Shown here piece by piece: positions 1,144-20,663 of a stretch of DNA of 33,259 nucleotides (within the stretch, counting starts at the first letter, position 1; the number at the start of each line of letters is the position of its first letter). Where the stretch lies: the IMG/VR virus record IMGVR_UViG_3300045988_058170, positions 1 to 33,259 of that record; one strand, given 5' to 3'. The notes below the pieces were generated by a model that saw only the letters and a program-made list of their open reading frames with translations, had not been told where the DNA came from and made no database searches. The DNA is from a virus. Both the position numbers and the translations under genes were made by a program.

Positions 1144-2592
1144 TCAGGCAATCACCTCCCTGACCTTGCGTTCCTTCGGACGGTTGACGCCACGATACCA
1201 TGCGGCGATGCTGACGCCCTTCAAACCCGCCGTGGTTTCCGTCTTGCGTATCGGCGCGAACTTCCACTGGTCATCCGAACCGGATTTGAGCTTCTGCGCG
1301 TTCTGCACTTCGGCGGTCAGTTGTGGGTTGTTCGTATGTTTGAACCGTCCCTCGTTCAACAGGTCGAGGAAGCCCTGCTGTGAGGCGAGGAATTCGGTTC
1401 CGGTCAACTGGATGACGTTCAATCCGCGTGGCAGCATGTCCCTTATCGGATTGTTCAAACCTCCCACATCCAAGATGAGCGTGGTCTTGCGCGGGCGCGT
1501 CTTCAATTCGTCCGTGACCCACTGCCATGATTCGGTGGTGGGGCGTTCGTCCACGATTTCGCCGATGATGTATGCCCACTTGTCGTAATGCTGCGAGCCG
1601 ACCGTGACCTCTTCGGTACTGGCGGCGACGCTGAGGGCGAGCGTGCTGGTCGCCGGGTCGAAGGTGAGCGCGTAGACGAGCGTATCACGGTCGTGCTGGA
1701 GGTCGGAGTAGGCGCTGTCCCACAGGTCCATGGGGATTGCGGGCGGAATGCTGTCGGCCCACCATAGGCCCAAGTCTTGGATGCGGAAGTCTATGAGACC
1801 GTCCGCGCCGCCCTGTTTGGCTATGGCAACGTCGGTGAGGAACGCTTCGCGTGGAATCACGTCCGGGTAGAGTGGGTTGGTGAGCGCCCACAACTGTTCG
1901 TCTTCGATGTCCGCCGTCTCGTCGTCGATGCCGTAGCGCACCGCATACGACATGTCGTCGTTCTCCGCATTGTCTAGGAACGTGTTGAACGTGTCTCCGA
2001 TGGACGAAGGGAGGAACGGGGTGCCCGTGTAGATTATCATGGCCATGCGGCGCGTCTTCAACGTCTTGGAAATCATCGCCTCGTATTCAGAGCGGAGTTC
2101 CTGCGCCTCATCAAAGATGACCAAATCGAACGTTCCACCCATTCCAGCGGAAGCGCTCTTGCGGGAGCGGAACCGGACGAACGCGCCGTTCCTCAACTGT
2201 AGGCGCTCGCGGCCCATGGTGGTGCTGAAGTGCGTGACTTCGGCTTTCAGTTCGGGGTTCGAGTCGATGGCGTCTTTCAAATCCTCCATGATTTTGTTGG
2301 CGGCTATCTGCTCGTGCGCGGTGACGAGCACGTTGAGTCCGAGCACGAACAAATAGTAGAGGATTGGGGCGGTGAGGATTTTCGTCTTGCCGTTCTGACG
2401 CGGCATGTTCAACGCGACACGCTTGTACTTCCACGTGCCGTCCTTCTTGCGTTGGAAGGCGTTGTTGAGGAATTCGACTTGGAACGGGAGGATTGCGTTT
2501 CCACGACCCCAGTTCACGTATTCCGCGGCCATGATTGCCACGTCGGATGTGGGACGTACGTTCGCCCTCCAGTTTGGATTCTTCACCAGCAT
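1144..2592 (-). CDS. terL: Terminase large subunit (Terminase_1 / HK97-like type)
   Basis: Walker A NMPRQNGKTK and Walker B FDLVIFDEAQE, followed by a C-terminal nuclease-like half. 482 aa. AGGTGG SD. Confidence 0.92.
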   Translation of the reverse strand: MLVKNPNWRANVRPTSDVAIMAAEYVNWGRGNAILPFQVEFLNNAFQRKKDGTWKYKRVALNMPRQNGKTKILTAPILYYLFVLGLNVLVTAHEQIAANKIMEDLKDAIDSNPELKAEVTHFSTTMGRERLQLRNGAFVRFRSRKSASAGMGGTFDLVIFDEAQELRSEYEAMISKTLKTRRMAMIIYTGTPFLPSSIGDTFNTFLDNAENDDMSYAVRYGIDDETADIEDEQLWALTNPLYPDVIPREAFLTDVAIAKQGGADGLIDFRIQDLGLWWADSIPPAIPMDLWDSAYSDLQHDRDTLVYALTFDPATSTLALSVAASTEEVTVGSQHYDKWAYIIGEIVDERPTTESWQWVTDELKTRPRKTTLILDVGGLNNPIRDMLPRGLNVIQLTGTEFLASQQGFLDLLNEGRFKHTNNPQLTAEVQNAQKLKSGSDDQWKFAPIRKTETTAGLKGVSIAAWYRGVNRPKERKVREVIA

Positions 2593-2593
2593 G

Positions 2594-3460
2594 TCATACC
2601 ACCTGATACTTCTTGAGGATGTCGGCGTCTGCGCCCTTGCCGTAGGCGTCGCCGATGGATGCGATGTCCTGCGCGGTCTGGGGGAACGTCAGCTCGTAGT
2701 CCAATGTGACGCCCAATGGTTCGAATACCGCGTTCAAATCCTGTTTGATGATGTAGGTGCGGCTGACGAAGCTTTCACGGTTGGACACCAATGATTGGGT
2801 TGTCGCTCCGAGCGTGTCGAGAATCTGCGCGTCCTGTGGGGGGAGTCCGGTTTCCATCTGAAAGCTCAATGCCGTGTTTTGCAGGAGGGTTTTGAGCTGT
2901 CCGTTGTCCCATTGGCTGAGTCGTTTGACTTCCGGTCGAACGATGGTGTCGTGGTCGTCGTTGGCGTCGAATTTCGTCCAGTTGGATGGATTCTTGTTCG
3001 GGTCGGCTTTGATTACCACGTCGGGGGACGTGCCTACCACGACCGGCTCGGGCAGCATGAGATGTTCGAGGTTTTGAGAGATGAGGCCTTCGATGACCAT
3101 GGCGCGCTGCGCCAACAGTACTGCTTGGTCGGTGACGGGCGCGTGGCTGAGGGTGAGGCATCGAAGGTTCTCGTCGATTTCCTCCGCGTTCTCGTCATAG
3201 CAGCGACCGTCCAAGCCTACTGCTGCTACTTTGTCCAATGGCAGGTCTGCCGTGGGGAGGTAGTCGGCGCTGAGCGGGTCGCCGTCCTGCATGAGGAAGT
3301 AGGAGTTTACGCCGCCGATGGCTTTGGAGAGGATGCGGGTGAAGCTGCGTTTGCCGACCGCGCTGAAGTTGCTGACTCGCACGCGCATGGAGTATGCGTT
3401 TTTAACGAGTTCTATCCATGGGAATGAGATGGTCTGTTCGTCCACGATGGTGAGTGTCAT
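2594..3460 (-). CDS. Hypothetical 288-aa protein immediately upstream of TerL (portal candidate by position and size only)
   Basis: ATGA overlap with the upstream ORF and only 1 nt before the TerL start. No motif recognised. Confidence 0.6.
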   Translation of the reverse strand: MTLTIVDEQTISFPWIELVKNAYSMRVRVSNFSAVGKRSFTRILSKAIGGVNSYFLMQDGDPLSADYLPTADLPLDKVAAVGLDGRCYDENAEEIDENLRCLTLSHAPVTDQAVLLAQRAMVIEGLISQNLEHLMLPEPVVVGTSPDVVIKADPNKNPSNWTKFDANDDHDTIVRPEVKRLSQWDNGQLKTLLQNTALSFQMETGLPPQDAQILDTLGATTQSLVSNRESFVSRTYIIKQDLNAVFEPLGVTLDYELTFPQTAQDIASIGDAYGKGADADILKKYQVV

Positions 3461-9423: not shown

Positions 9424-9595
9424 AATGTAGGATGTAGGAGATGTAAGCGGGTGTTCTGGGATTTTTTTTTGCACTTTTTCGACTCGACTCGACATCCGCA
9501 CCCCGACGGCGGTACGCGCGCGCGCACGCGTATATATATAAATAGTCCCAAAAAAAACCCATATACCCCTATTACCTACACCTACATCCTACATT
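9424..9595. repeat. Nested inverted repeats enclosing homopolymer, pentamer and alternating tracts (origin-like element)
   Basis: The outer 15-bp perfect inverted repeat is aatgtaggatgtagg (9424-9438) with cctacatcctacatt (9581-9595). The inner pair is ggg-a-T9 (9458-9470) with A8-ccc (9550-9560). The centre holds tcgac x3 (9479-9493) and the 28-nt YR tract. Confidence 0.8.
9513..9540. repeat. 28-nt perfectly alternating pyrimidine-purine tract (tacgcgcgcgcgcacgcgtatatatata)
   Basis: Read directly. (CG)n merges into (TA)5, so it is Z-DNA-prone and easily unwound. Confidence 0.9.
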
Positions 9596-9631
9596 CATTG
9601 GGGTTTGGGAGGGTTATCCTCGTGCGCGCGC

Positions 9632-9660
9632 GTGATACACCACGACATGCCAAAAGTCAA
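9632..9660 (-). promoter_or_regulatory. Weak candidate promoter facing the helicase-primase operon
   Basis: Minus strand reads TTGACT (9660-9655), 17 nt, then TATCAC (9637-9632). The -10 is poor. Confidence 0.2.
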
Positions 9661-10266
9661 GAAAATGTGCCACTGATTTTGTGTCAAACTCGCCGAAGTC
9701 GTCACAATTCCTTCACAGAATTTATTGCCCCTAACTTGAGTTGCCCAACAGGCTCAGCGTTGGAAATCCGCCAAAACCAAGACATGTTCGCAAATCACCG
9801 GCGCGAGCGCCGCGTTCCACAGTCCATCCCACCACACACATGGTCGCGGTTGACCTACCACCTCCCGGAATCGTTGGAACGACGCTGTAACAACGGCATC
9901 CAGCAATGGCCGCACGGAATGATTTCCTGAGGTCGGGAAATCATCCCCATGGCTGCACGTAAGCGAGCCGCCGTGTCCACCATGGTCGCCATCGCACGGG
10001 CCTTCGGAAGACGGCCATACTCGCCATGGCCGCAGCTGCCGGAGGCGTGGATTCAAATAAAGGCGTCTCTGAGAGCCTTTCAGTGCTGGAAGGTAAAAGT
10101 ATTAGGGTTCTGCATGAAAGCCAGTCCAAGGCCCCAAAGAATGGCTCTCAGATGGTTCCATTTCCGGTTTGCCCTCGTCGGCGCAATTGGCAAGGCGTGC
10201 GGTGAGGCCTCGGGCGTGTCGGTTTTCGGCACCCCCCCCTGTGGGTGGTGGGTCTCTCCCCCTGAT

Positions 10267-10282
10267 ATTGAAAACCGTTCTC
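10267..10282 (+). repeat. 16-bp direct repeat attgaAaaccgttctc; second copy attgaGaaccgttctc at 10403-10418
   Basis: 15/16 identical. The two copies bracket the 17-bp iteron array. Confidence 0.8.
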
Positions 10283-10310
10283 GTTTATTGTCGTCGGCGT
10301 CCTGGCGTCT

Positions 10311-10395
10311 GCCGCGTTCATGTGTTAACGTGGTTAATCCATTAACCGTGTTCATCCATTGACGCGGTTCATTTGTTAACGCGGTTCATGTGTGT
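10311..10395 (+). repeat. Five tandem degenerate 17-bp repeats (iteron/operator array)
   Basis: Units are gccgcgttcatgtgtta, acgtggttaatccatta, accgtgttcatccattg, acgcggttcatttgtta and acgcggttcatgtgtgt. The array contains the palindrome ggttaat-cc-attaacc and two GTTAAC sites. It ends 36 nt before the P1 -35. Confidence 0.8.
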
Positions 10396-10431
10396 TGTTG
10401 GTATTGAGAACCGTTCTCACGACACGCCGAC

Positions 10432-10460
10432 TTGACACTGTTGGTCACGTCTGGTATATT
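10432..10460 (+). promoter_or_regulatory. Early promoter P1
   Basis: TTGACA (10432-10437), 17 nt, TATATT (10455-10460). Preceded by cgacacgccgac. Confidence 0.75.
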
Positions 10461-10487
10461 GAAAGTATCAACCAAGGAGGTAATGAA

Positions 10488-10658: not shown

Positions 10659-10765
10659 GCGCAGGTGGGGCGGCACCCTCGACAAGGCGGGGTGTCGCTC
10701 CATTGCAGACACGCCTGGGCGGCGCTCAATGGCGAGAGCCGTCACACCGACCGCGACACGCCGAC

Positions 10766-10794
10766 TTGACGCATAACGTCACGTCCGGTATATT
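10766..10794 (+). promoter_or_regulatory. Early promoter P2 (duplicate of the P1 cassette)
   Basis: TTGACG, 17 nt, TATATT. About 60 bp including the leader (gtcacgtcYggtatattgRaagYatcaaccaa) is shared with P1. Confidence 0.75.
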
Positions 10795-10828
10795 GGAAGC
10801 ATCAACCAAAACACAAGGAGTGATTAAA

Positions 10829-11209
10829 ATGAGTGAATACATCGGAACGTTCGAACTCCAGCCGACATACGACGGGCGCAAGTCCTTCTACGGCAAGGCC
10901 GTCGTAGAACGGTGGGACACCGCAAAAGGCATGATTTACGTGCTCAGGTCATACGGTACCACGGTGGCCGTGGTCACGCCGACAAGCGATTGGGGCGCGG
11001 TGCCCGAGACCTATGAGGTCAAGGTGGCCATGGGACTTCTGAGCGCCACGACATTGCGCCACGTCAAGGAATTCCTTGCGCAGACTGATGACGTTTTCCG
11101 TGGAATCACCCTACCTTGGCTGCGCAAGGCCGTCAAGGACGGACGGCAGATTGACGGGGCCGTGCGTGAGCCGGTATGCCGCAAAACGTTCGTCATGGCC
11201 GAGCTATGA
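10829..11209 (+). CDS. Early protein (126 aa), unknown function
   Basis: AAGGAG SD before ATG 10829. Sequence MSEYIGTFELQPTYDGRKSFYGKAVV...SYGTTVAV...SATTLRHVKEFL. Confidence 0.7.
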   Translation: MSEYIGTFELQPTYDGRKSFYGKAVVERWDTAKGMIYVLRSYGTTVAVVTPTSDWGAVPETYEVKVAMGLLSATTLRHVKEFLAQTDDVFRGITLPWLRKAVKDGRQIDGAVREPVCRKTFVMAEL

Positions 11210-11250
11210 CACCATCCCCCGGCGTGATGGCGAAATGCGACACGCCGGGA

Positions 11251-11279
11251 TTGACAACAGAATACCAAAATGATATATT
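11251..11279 (+). promoter_or_regulatory. Early promoter P3 (extended -10)
   Basis: TTGACA (11251-11256), 17 nt, TATATT (11274-11279) with TG at 11271-11272. Preceded by cgacacgccggga. Confidence 0.7.
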
Positions 11280-11307
11280 AAAGCCATAGAAACAAGAGGA
11301 GGCAGCA

Positions 11308-11535: not shown

Positions 11536-11602
11536 CAGCATACATGCGGGTGCAAGTCCCGCAAGGGCACGAAAAAAGCCATCTATTAAGGAAGTGGTAA
11601 CA

Positions 11603-13207
11603 ATGGCTGACAGAATCGCAATCCTTGGCGGCGAACCGTATGCCGAGTGGATAGACTGCAGCGGCACACCGCAGTATCTCTTCAAAACATACCGCGACAG
11701 GTGGCCGGACGGCACGGCAGAGTGTGTCGCAATCGGCGATGAATTCTACATCCGAACTCAGGACGGTGAAATGCGCCGCGTCTACGACGACACGGATTTT
11801 GAAGACGAAACCGCATGGTGCGCGCAATGCGGAACACCACTCGCACCAAACAGCGTCCACTATGATTGTGAAGCCTACGGTTGTGACGCAATCCTCTGTG
11901 AAACGTGTGAGGGAACTTCCGAAGGCGATCGCCACTACTGCCCGCGTCACCGCGGTGACGAACTTCTTAGGTCACCAATGGAAGCCGAGTACACCTACCC
12001 GTACGCCTTCGGCGACGGTGACCAGTTCACTTTCGGCGTGGAGATCGAGATGGAATCCGAGCTTGGTTCCGACTTTGCAAAAGACATTGCGGAATCGAAC
12101 CTTATTGCCGGTTGGGACAATGACCAATCGTTGGAGCACAACGGCATCGAACTGCAAAGCAACATTCTCACCATGGCCAATCTCCCAGCCCTACGGGAGC
12201 TTATCAAACACATCCCCGACTACGGTGAGAACGCGGGCGGTCACATCCACGTTGCACGCACCACCAACCAGTGCGCTAGCCGTTGGTATTGGGCGCTGCG
12301 CGGACTGGATGGAGCGCAGTGCGAGCGCCTCAACATGCGCCACCTGTCCGATGATTATTGGTGCGAACTCAAACATGGCGAGTACAGCGGCAAACACACG
12401 GCAGTGAATGACGAACACGTTGACACTATCGAGCTGCGCACGTTCGACTGCTGGTATGCGGGTAGCGCCGATAGGTTTGAACCGGCGGTCAAGTGGATTC
12501 GCGCCATGTGGCGGTTTTTCGAAAAACACCCCCGCGGCACCATTGGCGCGGACACTATCGAGCGGTACGCCGCATGCATGGCCGACAATGTGGTTGACAC
12601 GCCCCGCCTCACCCTTGGGGAGCGGCGTGCGGCAGCGCACCGCGCAGCAGCCGCCCGTAAAGCCGAAGAGGAGCGGGAGCGTAAGGAGCGCGCCAAGGCA
12701 ATCCGCCGCAACGTGGAAGCCAATGTCAGGGCTTCACGTCGTGCGCGTGCAAGCCATGGCGACACGCTCCGTGCACGCCAGTCATGGCTGGACAATCAGC
12801 GTCGACGCGCAATCCGTCGCAAGGGCATCGAGAAGTGTCTCACCGACACCGCATACCCCTACGCTTTTCCGTCTCGCAACCTACAGCCATTGCACATCTA
12901 TCTTAGGTGCGCAACGAAAATGATTGTGGATCATGGCGAGTCGTACCGTAGCTTGGAACGGTTCCGTATCTACCATGCCGCCGGTGGCGAGTCGATATGG
13001 GATGGTTTCGATTATTCGTGTCGCAGCCGCGCTAATGCTCAATGGATTCTTGATAACATTTTGCGCAGCCGCAAGGCGCGCGCCTCCCACGGCAAGCCAA
13101 CCGTGGAATCGCTGGAACGCACCGCATTGCGCCTGTACAAGCGTGCTGGACGCCCCGAACTGTGTGCGCGCTACGCGCAGATTCGCGAGAATATCGCCAA
13201 CGCCTGA
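11603..13207 (+). CDS. Amidoligase_2-family (glutamine-synthetase-fold) enzyme with an N-terminal Cys-rich region and an Arg-rich C-terminal extension
   Basis: Core motifs FGVEIEME...DQSLEHNGIELQS...AGGHIHV...DTIELRTFD match the phage 'putative amidoligase' signature. N-terminus has CAQCGTP..CETCEG..YCPRH. The C-terminal ~200 aa is Arg-rich and helical. Confidence 0.75.
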   Translation: MADRIAILGGEPYAEWIDCSGTPQYLFKTYRDRWPDGTAECVAIGDEFYIRTQDGEMRRVYDDTDFEDETAWCAQCGTPLAPNSVHYDCEAYGCDAILCETCEGTSEGDRHYCPRHRGDELLRSPMEAEYTYPYAFGDGDQFTFGVEIEMESELGSDFAKDIAESNLIAGWDNDQSLEHNGIELQSNILTMANLPALRELIKHIPDYGENAGGHIHVARTTNQCASRWYWALRGLDGAQCERLNMRHLSDDYWCELKHGEYSGKHTAVNDEHVDTIELRTFDCWYAGSADRFEPAVKWIRAMWRFFEKHPRGTIGADTIERYAACMADNVVDTPRLTLGERRAAAHRAAAARKAEEERERKERAKAIRRNVEANVRASRRARASHGDTLRARQSWLDNQRRRAIRRKGIEKCLTDTAYPYAFPSRNLQPLHIYLRCATKMIVDHGESYRSLERFRIYHAAGGESIWDGFDYSCRSRANAQWILDNILRSRKARASHGKPTVESLERTALRLYKRAGRPELCARYAQIRENIANA

Positions 13208-13219
13208 CAACCGATCATC

Positions 13220-13242
13220 GGGGGTGGGAGCGTCCCGCCCCC
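13220..13242 (+). other. GC-rich hairpin between the amidoligase and amidotransferase genes
   Basis: gggggtggga-gcg-tcccgccccc forms 10 bp including one G-U pair. There is no U-tract, so it may be an attenuator, a processing site or an I-shaped terminator. Confidence 0.5.
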
Positions 13243-13265
13243 ACTGTTAGAAAGAGGAAAAACCA

Positions 13266-13766
13266 ATGTGTGTAATCGTAACCGCAGTGCCCGGCGCAAT
13301 GCCGGAACCCGAAGATATTCTCGCCATGAGTGAGACGAACCCGGACGGTGGCGGGGTCAGTTGGTGGGACAGGGAGCGCCTGAGGGTGTTCAAGAACGTT
13401 GACCCGCTGAAGGTGGTGGGATTCATCTACAGCCATTGGGAGCAGCTCAGGCATGCGCCATGCCTGATTCACTTCCGTCTCGCCACGCATGGCGCGGTCG
13501 AGCCGCGCAACTGTCACCCCTTCAGCACCGATAGGGGGTATATCGCGCATAATGGAATCGCATATGAGTACGAAAACGGGCCATACGCTTCCGACTCTCG
13601 CAACATGATTGAAGCGTGGGTCAACAGCGGATACGATAATAGTGTGTTCGACGGTCAGGGTCTAGTGGCTCTCATCACCCCGCATGGTTGCCTGAAATGG
13701 CTGGAGGGCGAGCCGATTGAATACGCGCGCGGTGTGTGGGTTTCCAATATGTTTTGGAACGTCTGA
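13266..13766 (+). CDS. Class-II (Ntn, Cys2 nucleophile) glutamine amidotransferase-like protein
   Basis: Starts MC (MCVIVTA). Also NPDGGG, CLIHFRLATHGAVEPRNCHPF and YIAHNG. AGAGGAAAA SD. Confidence 0.75.
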   Translation: MCVIVTAVPGAMPEPEDILAMSETNPDGGGVSWWDRERLRVFKNVDPLKVVGFIYSHWEQLRHAPCLIHFRLATHGAVEPRNCHPFSTDRGYIAHNGIAYEYENGPYASDSRNMIEAWVNSGYDNSVFDGQGLVALITPHGCLKWLEGEPIEYARGVWVSNMFWNV

Positions 13767-13837: not shown

Positions 13838-14218
13838 ATGAGTCAGTCAGAATATTTCCGCAATAAGGCTGTGACATATTTGGCTTGCGTATCCGACGTG
13901 GCGCTCAACGCCGGGGTAGACGCGGTAGGCGTCATCGTCGCACTTGATGTCGCACTCCCATACACGCCACGAGACTACATGAACGCACTCACAGCATGGC
14001 TGCAAGGACGATACGACGTATGGCAGAGTCGCATAGACGACTATGAGGCCGACCCAACAGACGAAAAATATGCAACCATAGCCGGACTAGCGCTCAGCGA
14101 ACACACCCCGCACACGCAACAGGATTTCGACGACATCGTGGAAATGGCATATCGCCTCGCAGTAGACGAAACGCTTATCGAAAACGAACTCGAAAAAAGG
14201 AGGAACAATGGCAAATGA
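13838..14218 (+). CDS. Hypothetical acidic protein (126 aa)
   Basis: TGAGGT SD. Asp/Glu-rich C-terminal half. Confidence 0.65.
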   Translation: MSQSEYFRNKAVTYLACVSDVALNAGVDAVGVIVALDVALPYTPRDYMNALTAWLQGRYDVWQSRIDDYEADPTDEKYATIAGLALSEHTPHTQQDFDDIVEMAYRLAVDETLIENELEKRRNNGK

Positions 14219-17469: not shown

Positions 17470-18743
17470 GGGCTTTCATCTTCGACGAGGCCGGAACCGG
17501 CAAGACGAAACGCAGCATGGACCTGCTGGATGATGCGAAACATATTCTCGTCATCTGTCCGGCAAGCGTCGTGAAAACCGCATGGCTTCCGCAAATCAGC
17601 CAATGGTCACACGGCAAGGCCATGACCATCGAAGACTACCGTAAGCATGGTTGGCCTGAAGACTACCGTTACCTCGTAGTGTCATACAATATGGCCGCTA
17701 AGCTGGGCGAAGTGCCGGACGGTTTCAGCCTCATCGTAGATGAAAGCCACATGGTGAAGAATCCTAGGAGCGGACGTTCCAAAGTAGTGAAGGGCATCAG
17801 CGACCTTGCCAAGAACGTGCTGATGCTGACCGGCACGCCCGCTCCGAAGGATTTGGAAGACCTATACGGGCAGACCGTGGTCATGTATCCGCACGCCAAG
17901 GACAGGATGACCCTATTAGGCGATTCTTGGCGCACTCTAGGAGCTTTCAGAGTACGGTACGGTAAACCACACACGACGAACATACAAGGGCGTCTCGTGG
18001 TCAAATACACGTACTCCAAGCCCATGGTCGAGGAAGCATGCCGACAACTCCAAAAGCTCGTATTGGATATTCGACGTGGCGGCAACCCGCTACCATCGGT
18101 GGAATGGTTGCCCAGCCCGAAAACCGAACAGGAGGATATGGCGCTCGAACAATGGACAACCACACACCAGTTATCCGAAGACGTGTACGCCACCAGTGCG
18201 AGCGCCGCAGCCGTCAAACTCGCCCAACTCGATGACGGATTCGCCTACAAGACCGAAGACCGTGGAGAATCCTACTGGTTCGGCGTGTCCAAACTCAAAA
18301 CCATCTACGATGAAGCCAAGAGACGCGAAGACCAGACGCCACTGCTCGTATGGACACGGTTCAAAGCGGTGAGAGACGAAATCTACCGCACTTGGACGCC
18401 ATGCACCGATGCGAAAACATTCCTCGCCATGACCGCCCAAGAACGCGCAGGATACCGGCTCATAGTCGCCAACCCGCAGTCCATGGGCACTGGTGTTGAC
18501 GGTTTGCAGCATCTCATGAAAGACCAGATATGGCTCGACCTCCCATGGACATACGCCGACTGGGAGCAGGCCAACCGAAGACTGGTACGACGCGGAAGCC
18601 CCTATCAGGGACAACAGCGCATACTCGTGCCGGACACGCCATGGAACCGCAAGGTCATGGACGTGATAGAAGGAAGGAAAACCCTAGATGACATCATCAA
18701 AACCGAAAAACAATTGGGAGAAGACAATGGGAAACGTCAATAA
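17466..18743 (+). CDS. SNF2-family (SF2) helicase
   Basis: GTG 17466 (GTGA overlap, AAGGAG SD). FDEAGTGKT, LIVDESHMVKN, MLTGTP and C-terminal helicase motifs (MGTGVDGLQ). Confidence 0.8.
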   Translation: MRAFIFDEAGTGKTKRSMDLLDDAKHILVICPASVVKTAWLPQISQWSHGKAMTIEDYRKHGWPEDYRYLVVSYNMAAKLGEVPDGFSLIVDESHMVKNPRSGRSKVVKGISDLAKNVLMLTGTPAPKDLEDLYGQTVVMYPHAKDRMTLLGDSWRTLGAFRVRYGKPHTTNIQGRLVVKYTYSKPMVEEACRQLQKLVLDIRRGGNPLPSVEWLPSPKTEQEDMALEQWTTTHQLSEDVYATSASAAAVKLAQLDDGFAYKTEDRGESYWFGVSKLKTIYDEAKRREDQTPLLVWTRFKAVRDEIYRTWTPCTDAKTFLAMTAQERAGYRLIVANPQSMGTGVDGLQHLMKDQIWLDLPWTYADWEQANRRLVRRGSPYQGQQRILVPDTPWNRKVMDVIEGRKTLDDIIKTEKQLGEDNGKRQ

Positions 18744-19086
18744 GGCGCTCAGCAAGGACGTGGGCACCACTGCCGTCGACATGGGTACGCTCCATCCGTC
18801 CGCAGCACGAATCTACAAGCGCATCCTCGACAACTTCGACCTTATCGGACGCATGCTCACCGGCGACAAGGCCGAAGAGTACGGCAACCCGCAAACCATG
18901 TGCCGACGCATCGGGCGGCGATGGTTCGAAAGGGAGGATGGCGAAACGGATGTGGCAATCATGATGGCCGAACTGAAAATCGAACGCATCAAGTTCGACC
19001 CGACCAAGGAAGACTCGTATATGGACGCCATCGCCTACCTCGCAATGGCGCTCGCATTCATGCAGGAAAGGAAGAACAATGATTAA
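18727..19086 (+). CDS. Possible dATP/dGTP-diphosphohydrolase-like / MazG-related domain protein
   Basis: ...EEYGNPQTMCRRIGRRW...VAIMMAELKIERIKF...EDSYMDAIAYLAMA pattern. Tentative. Confidence 0.4.
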   Translation: MGNVNKALSKDVGTTAVDMGTLHPSAARIYKRILDNFDLIGRMLTGDKAEEYGNPQTMCRRIGRRWFEREDGETDVAIMMAELKIERIKFDPTKEDSYMDAIAYLAMALAFMQERKNND

Positions 19087-19465
19087 CGTCAACCATAGTG
19101 TGACGCTTATCGAGGCGAGCCGTGAGGAATGGCGGAAGATAGAGTCCGGGGAGACGAACTTCATCCTCCGTAACACCCGGTCGCCATACGATACGACCGC
19201 CTTCATGGTCTTGGACGCCGACACCGGAGAGCATCTGGGCAACGCCTTCATCCTCTCGGGAACCACGTTCGGAGGCTGGGAGTGCAGCCCTTGGACGTGG
19301 CTCATGTTCGCCACGCTCACACGCATGACCGTGCGGGAACTCAAAGAACGGTTCCCGGACGAAGCGAAGATGAAAAACCCGTCCGCATGTGAAATGTACC
19401 TGTATGAAATCAAACCGGTGAGCGACACGGAACTGTTGCAGCACCTTGTCAATCCGAACGAGTAA
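19079..19465 (+). CDS. Hypothetical protein (possible ASCH/PUA-like fold)
   Basis: EEWRKIESGETNFILRN is weakly ASCH-like. ATGA coupling. Confidence 0.35.
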   Translation: MINVNHSVTLIEASREEWRKIESGETNFILRNTRSPYDTTAFMVLDADTGEHLGNAFILSGTTFGGWECSPWTWLMFATLTRMTVRELKERFPDEAKMKNPSACEMYLYEIKPVSDTELLQHLVNPNE

Positions 19466-19475
19466 GGAGAAAGAA

Positions 19476-20021
19476 ATGCTGAACGACATCACCATCGAAC
19501 AGTGCGTAGACCATCAAGACCTCATCCTGCCATACACGGAAAAACAGTTGAATCCCAACTCGTATGATGTGACATTGCAGGACACTATCATCATCTTCAC
19601 ATCGGACGTGGAAGACTGTTATTGTTATGCTGACGGTGGCGACCACACGCTGCATGGCGTCCGCACCGAGTCAGTCAAAATCGACGGACACTACATGCTC
19701 CAACCCGGACAGTTCGTCCTAGGCGCGACCGTCGAGAAAATCAGCCTCCCAGTCAACATGATGGCCCGATTTGACGGGAAAAGCAGTCTCGGACGGCTCG
19801 GACTCTGCACGCACATGACCGCAGGATTCATCGACGCCGGATTCACCGGCACCATCACCGTCGAACTGAAAAACGAAAACAGTTTCCCCATCATGCTGAA
19901 ACCCGGCATGCGAATCGGCCAAGTATCATTCGAATATCTGAACGCTGCGGCTGCGAAACCGTACGGCATGGTCGGCCACTATCAGAACCAGCATGCGCCG
20001 CAGCCAGCAGTGGAGGTTTGA
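19476..20021 (+). CDS. dcd: dCTP deaminase (dUTPase superfamily)
   Basis: LNPNSYDVTL...PGQFVLGATVEKISLP...DGKSSLGRLGL..H..AGFIDAGFTGTITVELKN...IGQVSF...YQNQ. AAGGAG SD. Confidence 0.8.
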   Translation: MLNDITIEQCVDHQDLILPYTEKQLNPNSYDVTLQDTIIIFTSDVEDCYCYADGGDHTLHGVRTESVKIDGHYMLQPGQFVLGATVEKISLPVNMMARFDGKSSLGRLGLCTHMTAGFIDAGFTGTITVELKNENSFPIMLKPGMRIGQVSFEYLNAAAAKPYGMVGHYQNQHAPQPAVEV

Positions 20022-20184: not shown

Positions 20185-20320
20185 AGCACTGGCACACCTC
20201 GACCCGACTCTATGTCGGCATTGCCTAAAGAAACTCACCAATAAAGAAATGTACCTGTTCGGCGGGTACTGTACGAAATGTTGGAGGTTGCGCGGTGGCC
20301 GTCGAACAAGACTGGCGTGA
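20171..20320 (+). CDS. Small zinc-ribbon protein (49 aa; below the ORF-track cutoff)
   Basis: CRHC...CTKC. Overlaps both neighbours, so it is uncertain. Confidence 0.3.
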   Translation: MSVIRALAHLDPTLCRHCLKKLTNKEMYLFGGYCTKCWRLRGGRRTRLA

Positions 20321-20663
20321 CAGCATGAAATACTATCTCAGCCCCGAACAGACGAGCGCCGTGGAAATGCGAAGCATCGCACGATACGGCAATGACACGC
20401 AGACCACCGTCTGCATGGAGGAGTGCGCCGAACTCATACAGGCAATCAGCAAGCTCAAACGCTACAATCCCGAAGACCCCACCAACAAGGTGGGTCGCAG
20501 CGAGCTTATCGAAAACCTGTACGAGGAAATGGCCGACGTGCAGATATGCTTCGACCTGCTGATTGAAATCTACGGGTTGAAGCCGAGCGACCTGCGCCGC
20601 ATGATGGACCATAAGGTGTGGCGTATAAAGCGGAAGCTGGAAGCGCAGGGCGAGAAGTTCTAA
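20295..20663 (+). CDS. MazG-like all-alpha NTP pyrophosphohydrolase
   Basis: MEECAELIQAISK...LYEEMADVQICFDLL carries the EExxE...ExxD metal-binding helices. GTG 20295 with a GGAGG SD, or ATG 20325. Confidence 0.7.
   Translation: MAVEQDWRDSMKYYLSPEQTSAVEMRSIARYGNDTQTTVCMEECAELIQAISKLKRYNPEDPTNKVGRSELIENLYEEMADVQICFDLLIEIYGLKPSDLRRMMDHKVWRIKRKLEAQGEKF

Follow-up and report, generated by a model that had tools for sequence, protein, structure and literature searches.

We report a pair of adjacent genes in the viral record IMGVR_UViG_3300045988_058170 of IMG/VR, all 33,259 nucleotides of which (positions 1 to 33,259; hereafter the window) were analyzed. The first gene, at 11603..13207 on the + strand, encodes a 534-aa protein predicted to be an ATP-dependent carboxylate-amine ligase with the glutamine synthetase (GS) fold. 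The second, at 13266..13766 on the same strand, encodes a 166-aa miniature version of the class-II, N-terminal nucleophile (Ntn) glutamine amidotransferases (GATases), predicted to be a cysteine amidohydrolase of the GATase_4 (YafJ/EgtC) type. Very probably the two genes constitute a divergent, Bifidobacterium-specific branch of the phage module that combines an Amidoligase_2 protein with a class-II GATase. The pair is a well-supported, divergent member of a known phage system predicted in 2009. Both genes are real rather than chance open reading frames (ORFs), given their many homologue clusters and the purifying selection acting on them, and both ORFs, together with every motif quoted for them in an initial annotation of this DNA, were recovered in place on the + strand.

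The ligase escapes direct searches: there was no match to the Pfam Amidoligase_2 profile (PF12224), even at E<1, none to PHROGs or NCBIfam, and none to the PDB by either sequence or profile, and among >120 close homologues not one carries a precomputed Pfam domain. Homologues of the ligase fall into >400 protein clusters, nearly all of them on ~33 kb contigs, and a profile built from 31 homologues matched only 135 proteins among 1.84 billion representatives, which indicates that the family is very narrow. The most distant of the profile matches, P0338 (E 5e-6) and P0341 (E 4e-5), pass the PF12224 threshold themselves with 22.8 and 35.9 bits respectively. When the Bifidobacterium family was aligned by hhalign with the family centred on P0341, bridging sequences having been removed, the two matched at 97.7% (E = 1.6e-12, 198 columns) with the motifs FTFGxEIE, DxSL..GxE, GGHIHV, GK.TAVN and IELRTF in register; the corresponding comparison with gp108 of mycobacteriophage Tesla gave 97.2%. 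An AlphaFold run using close homologues only yielded an unusable model (pLDDT 51.7) and was superseded by a run on the core (residues 60-340) with a diverse alignment, which attained a pLDDT of 88 and a pTM of 0.82. Foldseek searches with this core model recovered from BFVD dozens of phage models named 'Amidoligase enzyme' (E down to 2.5e-10, probability 1.0), and each of the top 43 matches in the PDB was a glutamine synthetase (best E 1.6e-3, probability 0.96, TM-scores 0.27-0.40). Furthermore, 30 diverse relatives, down to 22% identity, all possess G145, E147, E149, S176, E183, G212, H214, H216, R246 and R279, and E277 is invariant in two of our alignments (A5/A9) and nearly so in a third (A3); the metal- and ATP-ligand motifs of the GS-like amidoligases (GxExE, E, GGHxH, R and ExR) are thus kept in the ligase. 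As judged from the transitive hidden Markov model (HMM) matches, the hhalign comparison, the predicted fold and this set of ligands, the ligase is a member of the GS-like amidoligase superfamily. The amidoligase assignment of the initial annotation therefore holds by this indirect route, namely the transitive HMM search, the 97.7% hhalign match, the fold match and the invariant Glu/His/Arg residues, although the direct Pfam profile search does not recover it.

The ligase displays a four-part architecture, comprising an N-terminal domain, a zinc-ribbon, the GS-like core and a basic C-terminal extension, all encoded on the + strand. Translation begins at the ATG at 11603, which is preceded by the ribosome-binding site AAGGAAG, rather than at the GTG at 11594; the homologues all start with MADRIAILGGEPY, in agreement with this choice. 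The acidic N-terminal domain (residues 1-68, 11603..11806) is present in the phage versions only and has no family match. It is followed by a Cys-rich zinc-ribbon region (residues 73-116, 11819..11950) with the motifs CAQCGTP, CETCEG and YCPRH, whose eight Cys/His ligands (C73, C76, C89, C94, C99, C102, C113 and H116) are invariant in close homologues, and whose matches to the B-box, C1 and double-zinc-ribbon families are weak and all below threshold. The catalytic core (residues 126-335, 11978..12607) contains the motifs FGVEIEME (residues 144-151, nt 12032-12055), DQSLEHNGIELQS (residues 174-186), GGHIHV (residues 212-217) and IELRTFD (residues 276-282). The mostly helical C-terminal extension (residues 336-534, 12608..13204) comprises 199 aa rich in Arg and Lys, with an isoelectric point (pI) of 10.9, and is found in the phage versions, not in the chromosomal ones. 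It contains two copies of a 13-residue internal repeat with the pattern N[VI]xxSR[RK]ARASHG (residues 374-386, 12722..12760, and residues 485-497, 13055..13093), which is kept in homologues of just ~32-36% identity (P0224, P0226 and P0227).

The GATase scores 28.9 bits with the Pfam GATase_4 profile (PF13230), for which the cutoff is 23, and its homologues, which form ~100 protein clusters, likewise nearly all on ~33 kb contigs, carry the precomputed PF13230 domain. Among solved structures its best match is the YafJ-like protein 3mdn (E = 4e-6), and its best neighbour in NCBIfam is EgtC (TIGR03442), matched at 29.9 bits, below the equivalog cutoff of 218.65. The characteristic motifs are MC (residues 1-2, with Cys2 at nt 13269-13271), NPDGGG (25-30), HFRLATHG (69-76), NCHPF (82-86) and HNG (95-97). 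Among 18 homologues down to 32% identity, no substitution occurs at N25, G28, R71, N82 or G97, and C2, D27, N96 and D110 are each retained in at least 90%; by homology these correspond to the class-II set comprising the nucleophile, the residues that bind the alpha-carboxylate and alpha-amino groups of glutamine, and the oxyanion hole. The protein is nevertheless short, aligning to positions 29-114 of the 272 in the GATase_4 profile, whereas a complete Ntn domain spans ~230-270 residues; its chromosomal relatives have in addition a ~45-aa acidic tail, and the partners in the wider family are ~290 aa long. Several statements of the initial annotation are borne out by these results. The Cys-rich N-terminal region of the ligase and its ~200-aa Arg-rich helical extension are indeed present, the class-II assignment of the second protein is upheld by the GATase_4 score and by the conservation of Cys2, Arg71, Asn96-Gly97 and Asp110, and the alignments confirm that the catalytic residues are conserved, Cys2 of the GATase being nearly invariant and the metal/ATP ligands of the ligase invariant or nearly so.

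The ligase gene precedes the GATase gene at all intact related loci examined. Among 22 IMG/VR genomes the two are adjacent in 21, and in the remaining one (L040) a deletion has fused them, joining residue 333 of the ligase to residue 114 of the GATase. The synteny ligase-GATase-Erf-VRR-NUC-SNF2 is retained in a contig from a distant actinophage (L010), and in the Marvin-like mycobacteriophage Tesla the zinc-ribbon ligase gp108 and the GATase gp109 are encoded at 1058-2419 and 2501-3400 of locus L043. The name 'glutamine amidotransferase domain protein', under which gp108 is annotated and which also stands in BFVD, raised the possibility of a ligase-GATase fusion in Tesla; this was rejected, as gp108 and gp109 are separate genes, of which gp108 is the amidoligase partner and only gp109 the GATase. 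Across the Marvin-like phages the GATase name seems to have passed to the ligase gene beside it. In the wider Amidoligase_2-like family, all six sampled loci have the ligase gene followed by one for a ~290-320-aa protein, which Pfam confirms as a GATase in four. A gene for gamma-glutamylamine cyclotransferase (GGACT) is added in two of these six, the phage loci L011 and L012, and in those alone; none was found in the window by Pfam scans of its early- and middle-region ORFs. At 7195-7464 of L011 there is also a signal-sponge gene of the Acb2/Tad1 type (anti-CBASS/Thoeris), at most 3 kb from its Amidoligase_2, GATase_4 and GGACT genes, a hint that the surroundings of the pair in this contig are an accessory region for anti-defence.

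Beyond the features given in the initial annotation, we observed that the GATase is a miniature version, that the ligase subfamily is confined to phages of Bifidobacterium and to mobile elements within the chromosomes of this genus, and that these host elements carry the pair. The chromosomes concerned are those of B. asteroides, B. miconisargentati, B. vansinderenii, B. callimiconis and B. margollesii, in which a zinc-ribbon ligase of ~330-400 aa overlaps by 1 nt with a GATase of ~210-220 aa. Integrases, an AbiD gene or a TrwC relaxase are found next to the pair, and only the two genes themselves are conserved between loci. In B. asteroides and related metagenome contigs (L002/L003/L013), as well as in L006/L007, the pair lies in mobile or defence-island-like settings, which contain AbiD, tyrosine integrases, the TrwC relaxase and DUF2326/MC6/CTD10 conflict-system genes, with a divergently transcribed helix-turn-helix regulator upstream. 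No defence model of PADLOC-DB v2 matched either protein in its phage or chromosomal version, the neighbouring AbiD being the only match, and the pair was accordingly rejected as a known defence system.

The closest cultured relatives of the 2.2-kb region containing the pair are the Bifidobacterium phages BP677P1-P8, which are 88% identical to it in nucleotide sequence, and BA720P3, BA746P1 and BP742P1 are more distant. All have genomes of ~33 kb and come from sewage, with B. pseudocatenulatum or B. adolescentis as the isolation host, and all their genes are labelled 'hypothetical protein' in GenBank. Given the size of these relatives and the 88% identity of the pair region, the window is essentially the whole genome of a ~33-kb Bifidobacterium phage of the BP677P1/BA720P3/BP742P1 clade. 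All three cultured lineages have independent lesions in the ligase with an intact GATase: BP677P1-P8 show a +2-nt insertion after codon 255 (position 2682 of L001), BA720P3 and BA746P1 a stop codon at the invariant W303 (~3233 of L020), and BP742P1 a 1.19-kb deletion equivalent to 11781-12973 of the window (2638-2745 of L019). GenBank lists the resulting fragments as separate hypothetical proteins. Among the uncultured IMG/VR genomes both genes are intact in 18 of 22; L039 and L042 have frameshifts in the ligase and L041 a multiply frameshifted GATase, in addition to the above-mentioned deletion in L040. For three lesions in three cultured lineages, given six lesions in 25 lineages, the hypergeometric p is ~0.009, in a small sample whose lineages may not be independent. 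The lesions number 5-6 in the ligase and 1-2 in the GATase, roughly in proportion to gene length, which rules out arguing from their pattern for an independent function of the GATase. Across 17 genomes, the median pairwise ratio of nonsynonymous to synonymous substitution rates (dN/dS) is 0.19 for the ligase (0.13 in the core and 0.29 in the C-terminal extension) and 0.088 for the GATase. As the broken ligase recurs in the cultured relatives and selection maintains it in natural genomes, the pair is an accessory cassette outside the replication core that is dispensable in culture; in the gut selection maintains it, but on laboratory hosts the phage can do without it, or it is even selected against. 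A dispensable, recurrently lost gene is compatible with the role in host takeover or counter-defence suggested in the initial annotation.

The chemistry, donor, target, timing and biological role of the pair we infer as follows. We propose, with a probability of roughly one in three, that the ligase is a writer of gamma-glutamyl-type amides that acts together with an Ntn amidohydrolase on a host macromolecule. The ligase would first phosphorylate a glutamate-type carboxylate using ATP and then couple the activated carboxylate to an amine, giving rise to a gamma-glutamyl-type amide or isopeptide. Target recognition would be mediated by the zinc-ribbon and the basic extension, and the target would most likely be a host macromolecule. 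Cys2 of the Ntn hydrolase would then cleave glutamine or gamma-glutamyl amide bonds and might thereby process, limit or reverse the mark, in a writer/eraser logic like that of PuuA/PuuD, EgtA/EgtC or PafA/Dop. The members of the GS fold other than GS itself (GCL/EgtA, PuuA and PafA) form gamma-glutamyl amides, the characterized stand-alone GATase_4 enzymes (EgtC and Dug3) hydrolyse them, and GGACT, which cannot donate ammonia, cleaves them. It is because all three kinds of enzyme handle gamma-glutamyl amides, and GGACT is the only other recurrent partner of the ligase, that we favour this chemistry; the zinc-ribbon and the basic tail suggest that the target is macromolecular. Clostridium prophages likewise pair an amidoligase with a gamma-glutamyl cyclotransferase (PMC11318856).

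Several points weigh against this proposal. The zinc-ribbon and the basic tail are the only features that suggest a macromolecular target, and the gamma-glutamyl argument leans on neighbours at the level of the family, the window itself being devoid of a GGACT gene. The fold matches of the ligase core in the PDB have low TM-scores (0.27-0.40), so that any active-site geometry derived from them would be tentative, and the GATase is short enough (166 aa, profile positions 29-114 of 272) that its specificity or activity may be altered. That one cassette should encode both an enzyme to form the bond and another to break it calls for a rationale. As the initial annotation had also stated, no substrate of an amidoligase-GATase pair is reported in the searchable literature. 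Finally, strict adjacency and translational coupling fit a two-subunit glutamine-dependent amidotransferase equally well.

The last of these points leads to a close rival, which we regard as possible, if somewhat on the unlikely side. Here the GATase would free ammonia from glutamine for attack on the acyl-phosphate generated by the ligase, converting R-COOH to R-CONH2 on a protein, a cell-wall precursor or a metabolite, by analogy to MurT/GatD. Such a division of labour is consistent with the near-universal adjacency and order of the two genes and with the 1-nt overlap in the chromosomal copies, and the GS fold natively uses ammonia as its nucleophile. The GATase also retains, besides Cys2 and the oxyanion pair N96-G97, the residues D110 and R71, by which free glutamine is bound at its alpha-amino and alpha-carboxylate groups, and the proportionality of lesions to gene length means that nothing shows a separate role for it. 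On the other hand, every ammonia-channelling class-II GATase known to us shares one polypeptide with its synthase, and those stand-alone GATase_4 proteins that have been characterized act as hydrolases; this scheme would leave the GGACT partner of the related loci with no role, and a glutamate substrate would result in a futile cycle.

A particular form of the gamma-glutamyl proposal, rather unlikely in our estimation, is that of a reversible gamma-glutamylation switch on a protein or a nucleic-acid-bound protein, in which the zinc-ribbon ligase would place the tag and the mini Ntn hydrolase would remove or restrict it. Under such a switch the ligase would tag a host factor and so allow the phage to commandeer the cell or disarm it, and on the mobile elements of Bifidobacterium the cassette would serve exclusion or abortive infection in the manner of a toxin and its antidote. 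That phages plaquing on laboratory hosts have repeatedly lost the ligase would then mean that the intact ligase is sensed, or does harm, on those strains.

A modification of the cell envelope for superinfection exclusion, whereby the pair would add or amidate residues on peptidoglycan precursors or wall polymers and so block adsorption by competing phages, appears decidedly improbable. The stem peptides of peptidoglycan do hold gamma-glutamyl bonds and free carboxylates, and the occurrence of the pair on integrative Bifidobacterium elements beside integrases and AbiD would suit an exclusion or defence cargo. A cell-wall modification directed against superinfection is also what secondary citations (PMC10580990, PMC11318856) attribute to the 2009 prediction of Iyer et al. 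for phiEco32-type systems. However, neither protein has a signal peptide, a membrane segment or a match to a cell-wall-binding domain, the zinc-ribbon and the Arg-rich helical tail suggest that the partner is a protein or nucleic acid inside the cell, and exclusion by a lytic ~33 kb phage is plausible but unproven.

Very improbable is the completion of a hypermodified nucleotide or DNA base by the pair, a role that has been proposed for the amidoligase and amidotransferase genes found with thymidine-hypermodification clusters. Amidoligase and glutaminotransferase genes have been found beside thymidine-hypermodification clusters with 5-HMUDK and aGPT-Pplase (Lee et al. 2021, PMC8989533), one of the amidoligase-fold matches in BFVD is fused to a deoxycytidylate-deaminase domain, and the window encodes a dCTP-deaminase-like protein, a sub-threshold MazG-like match and a DUF6378 protein. 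Pfam scans of the early- and middle-region ORFs nonetheless revealed no dUMP/dCMP hydroxymethylase, 5-HMUDK, aGPT-Pplase, DpdA or Que protein, and on host mobile elements the pair stands alone with no DNA-metabolism genes nearby; the lack of hydroxymethylase, kinase and transferase genes and the isolation of the pair on host elements make such a modification unlikely here, and the cultured relatives grow despite a broken ligase. That the pair is a decaying or non-functional remnant on its way to loss is scarcely credible, for although the ligase and/or GATase is disrupted in 3/3 cultured lineages and 4/22 uncultured genomes, both ORFs are intact in the window, 18/22 uncultured genomes keep both, dN/dS is 0.13 in the ligase core and 0.088 in the GATase, and the catalytic residues are invariant down to 22% identity.

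The pair belongs to a block of + strand genes at ~10.4-20.7 kb that begins with three small genes, each with its own near-consensus sigma-70-type promoter (10-11 of 12 consensus matches). The first promoter (10432..10460, TTGACA-17-TATATT, with TG) precedes a 57-aa gene, the second (10766..10794) a 127-aa gene (phrog_4264), and the third (11251..11279), the closest one upstream of the ligase, a 75-aa gene. A 56-nt cassette is duplicated at the first two (10420-10475 and 10754-10809, 84% identical) and is also discernible at 11237-11280; its sequence is CGACACGCCGACTTGAC...GGTATATTG.AAG.ATCAACCAA. The three promoter cassettes noted in the initial annotation are present as near-consensus promoters. 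In BP742P1 the second cassette is missing, together with the 127-aa gene that it precedes (window ~10764-11236). The ligase-GATase pair is probably transcribed by read-through from these strong promoters and, to go by the promoter consensus and the position of the genes, would be expressed early. Directly upstream of the first promoter there are four tandem 17-nt iterons (GTTCATnnGTTAACGCG-like) at 10316-10389, which could be operators or origin-type binding sites. Between the two genes of the pair, as the initial annotation had recognized, lies a G+C hairpin (13220..13242, + strand) with a 10-bp stem (-21.9 kcal/mol, z = -2.25 relative to shuffled sequences), possibly an attenuator or an RNA-stability element. 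It is not followed by a U-tract and was not called by a terminator scan, and a classical intrinsic terminator was rejected.

Downstream of the pair the + strand block continues with a 126-aa gene, Erf, a gp2.5-like single-stranded DNA-binding protein, VRR-NUC, a YqaJ-like exonuclease, an SNF2 helicase, DUF6378, a dCTP-deaminase-like protein and a weak MazG-like match below threshold; the opposite strand encodes a prim-pol/helicase protein along with the structural and lysis genes. The 126-aa gene (13838-14218) was considered as a third component of the system and rejected, as it is syntenic within the phage clade only, overlaps Erf and has no counterpart elsewhere. The DUF6378, dCTP-deaminase-like (E = 2e-39) and MazG-like genes (18688-19086, 19446-20021 and 20295-20663) form a small nucleotide-pool module, and DUF6378 is also found near the amidoligase-GATase-GGACT cluster of the unrelated contig L012. 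The ~0.9 kb at 9500-10400 contain no convincing gene, and show G+C-rich inverted repeats (9517-9534 and 9615-9632) and homopolymer runs. The BP677P1 record starts at a point equivalent to ~9683 of the window, and on this ground the interval may contain the physical ends of the genome or a cos/ori region.

Amidoligase-GATase pairs are scattered over Pseudomonas, marine OM43, mycobacterial, crAss-like and gut phages, and the present results show that a sizeable, gut-abundant clade of Bifidobacterium phages carries a version wholly missed by standard annotation. The most useful new handle is the set of natural ligase knock-outs in the cultured isolates, which by frameshift, nonsense mutation and deletion furnish a comparative system for establishing phenotype and target. 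The importance of the pair would be greater if its target were a host defence factor or a translation or replication factor.

Among previously known systems, MurT/GatD resembles the window pair by analogy only, in combining an ATP-dependent, acyl-phosphate-forming ligase with an adjacent, separate glutaminase; MurT has the Mur-ligase fold, GatD is a class-I (triad) GATase, and no homology to the window pair was detected with Pfam or NCBIfam. The GATase_4 proteins EgtC, YafJ and Dug3 share with the window GATase the N-terminal Cys and the NxDGxG, HxRxATxG, HNG and SDS motifs, but the latter is ~90 residues shorter and is not accompanied by ergothioneine genes. GS, GCL/EgtA, PuuA and PafA have in common with the window ligase the fold and the Glu/His/Arg ligands of metal and phosphate, from which a shared acyl-phosphate chemistry may be surmised; unlike GS, the ligase has no N-terminal beta-grasp domain, and it shows TM-scores of 0.27-0.40 and no sequence-level match in the PDB. 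A further parallel is the Bifidobacterium chromosomal pair, in which the genes occur in the same order, with 39-43% identity in the zinc-ribbon and core and 44-51% in the GATase. The chromosomal ligases differ in their length of 330-400 aa, their additional CxxC repeats and their lack of the basic extension, and the chromosomal GATases in the extra ~45-aa acidic tail and in the 1-nt gene overlap, as opposed to the hairpin-containing gap of the window.

The phage pairs of Amidoligase_2 and class-II GATase proteins were, according to a secondary citation (PMC10580990), predicted by Iyer, Abhiman, Burroughs and Aravind in 2009; examples have been noted in LUZ24-like Pseudomonas phages, OM43 phages and the mycobacteriophages Marvin and Tesla (gp108-gp109) (PMC3890496, PMC10580990), and in 2023 the functions of the amidoligase and GATase were said to 'remain to be explored' (PMC10580990). 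Unlike these pairs, the window ligase goes unrecognized by Pfam, PHROGs and NCBIfam and possesses the phage-specific N-terminal domain and the 200-aa basic extension with its internal 13-aa repeat; the window GATase has 166 aa as against ~290 aa in the canonical partners, and no ATP-grasp, COOH-NH2 ligase or GGACT gene lies beside the pair. The window pair nevertheless shares with them the GS-like core motif set, the order of ligase then GATase, the location among early or DNA-metabolism genes and the as yet unreported substrate. The neighbourhood by which such systems were delineated in 2009, namely a GAT-II thiol hydrolase and/or an AIG2/GGACT protein, is represented by the GATase encoded directly downstream, and the placement of a zinc-ribbon before the core is common to the window ligase and Tesla gp108.

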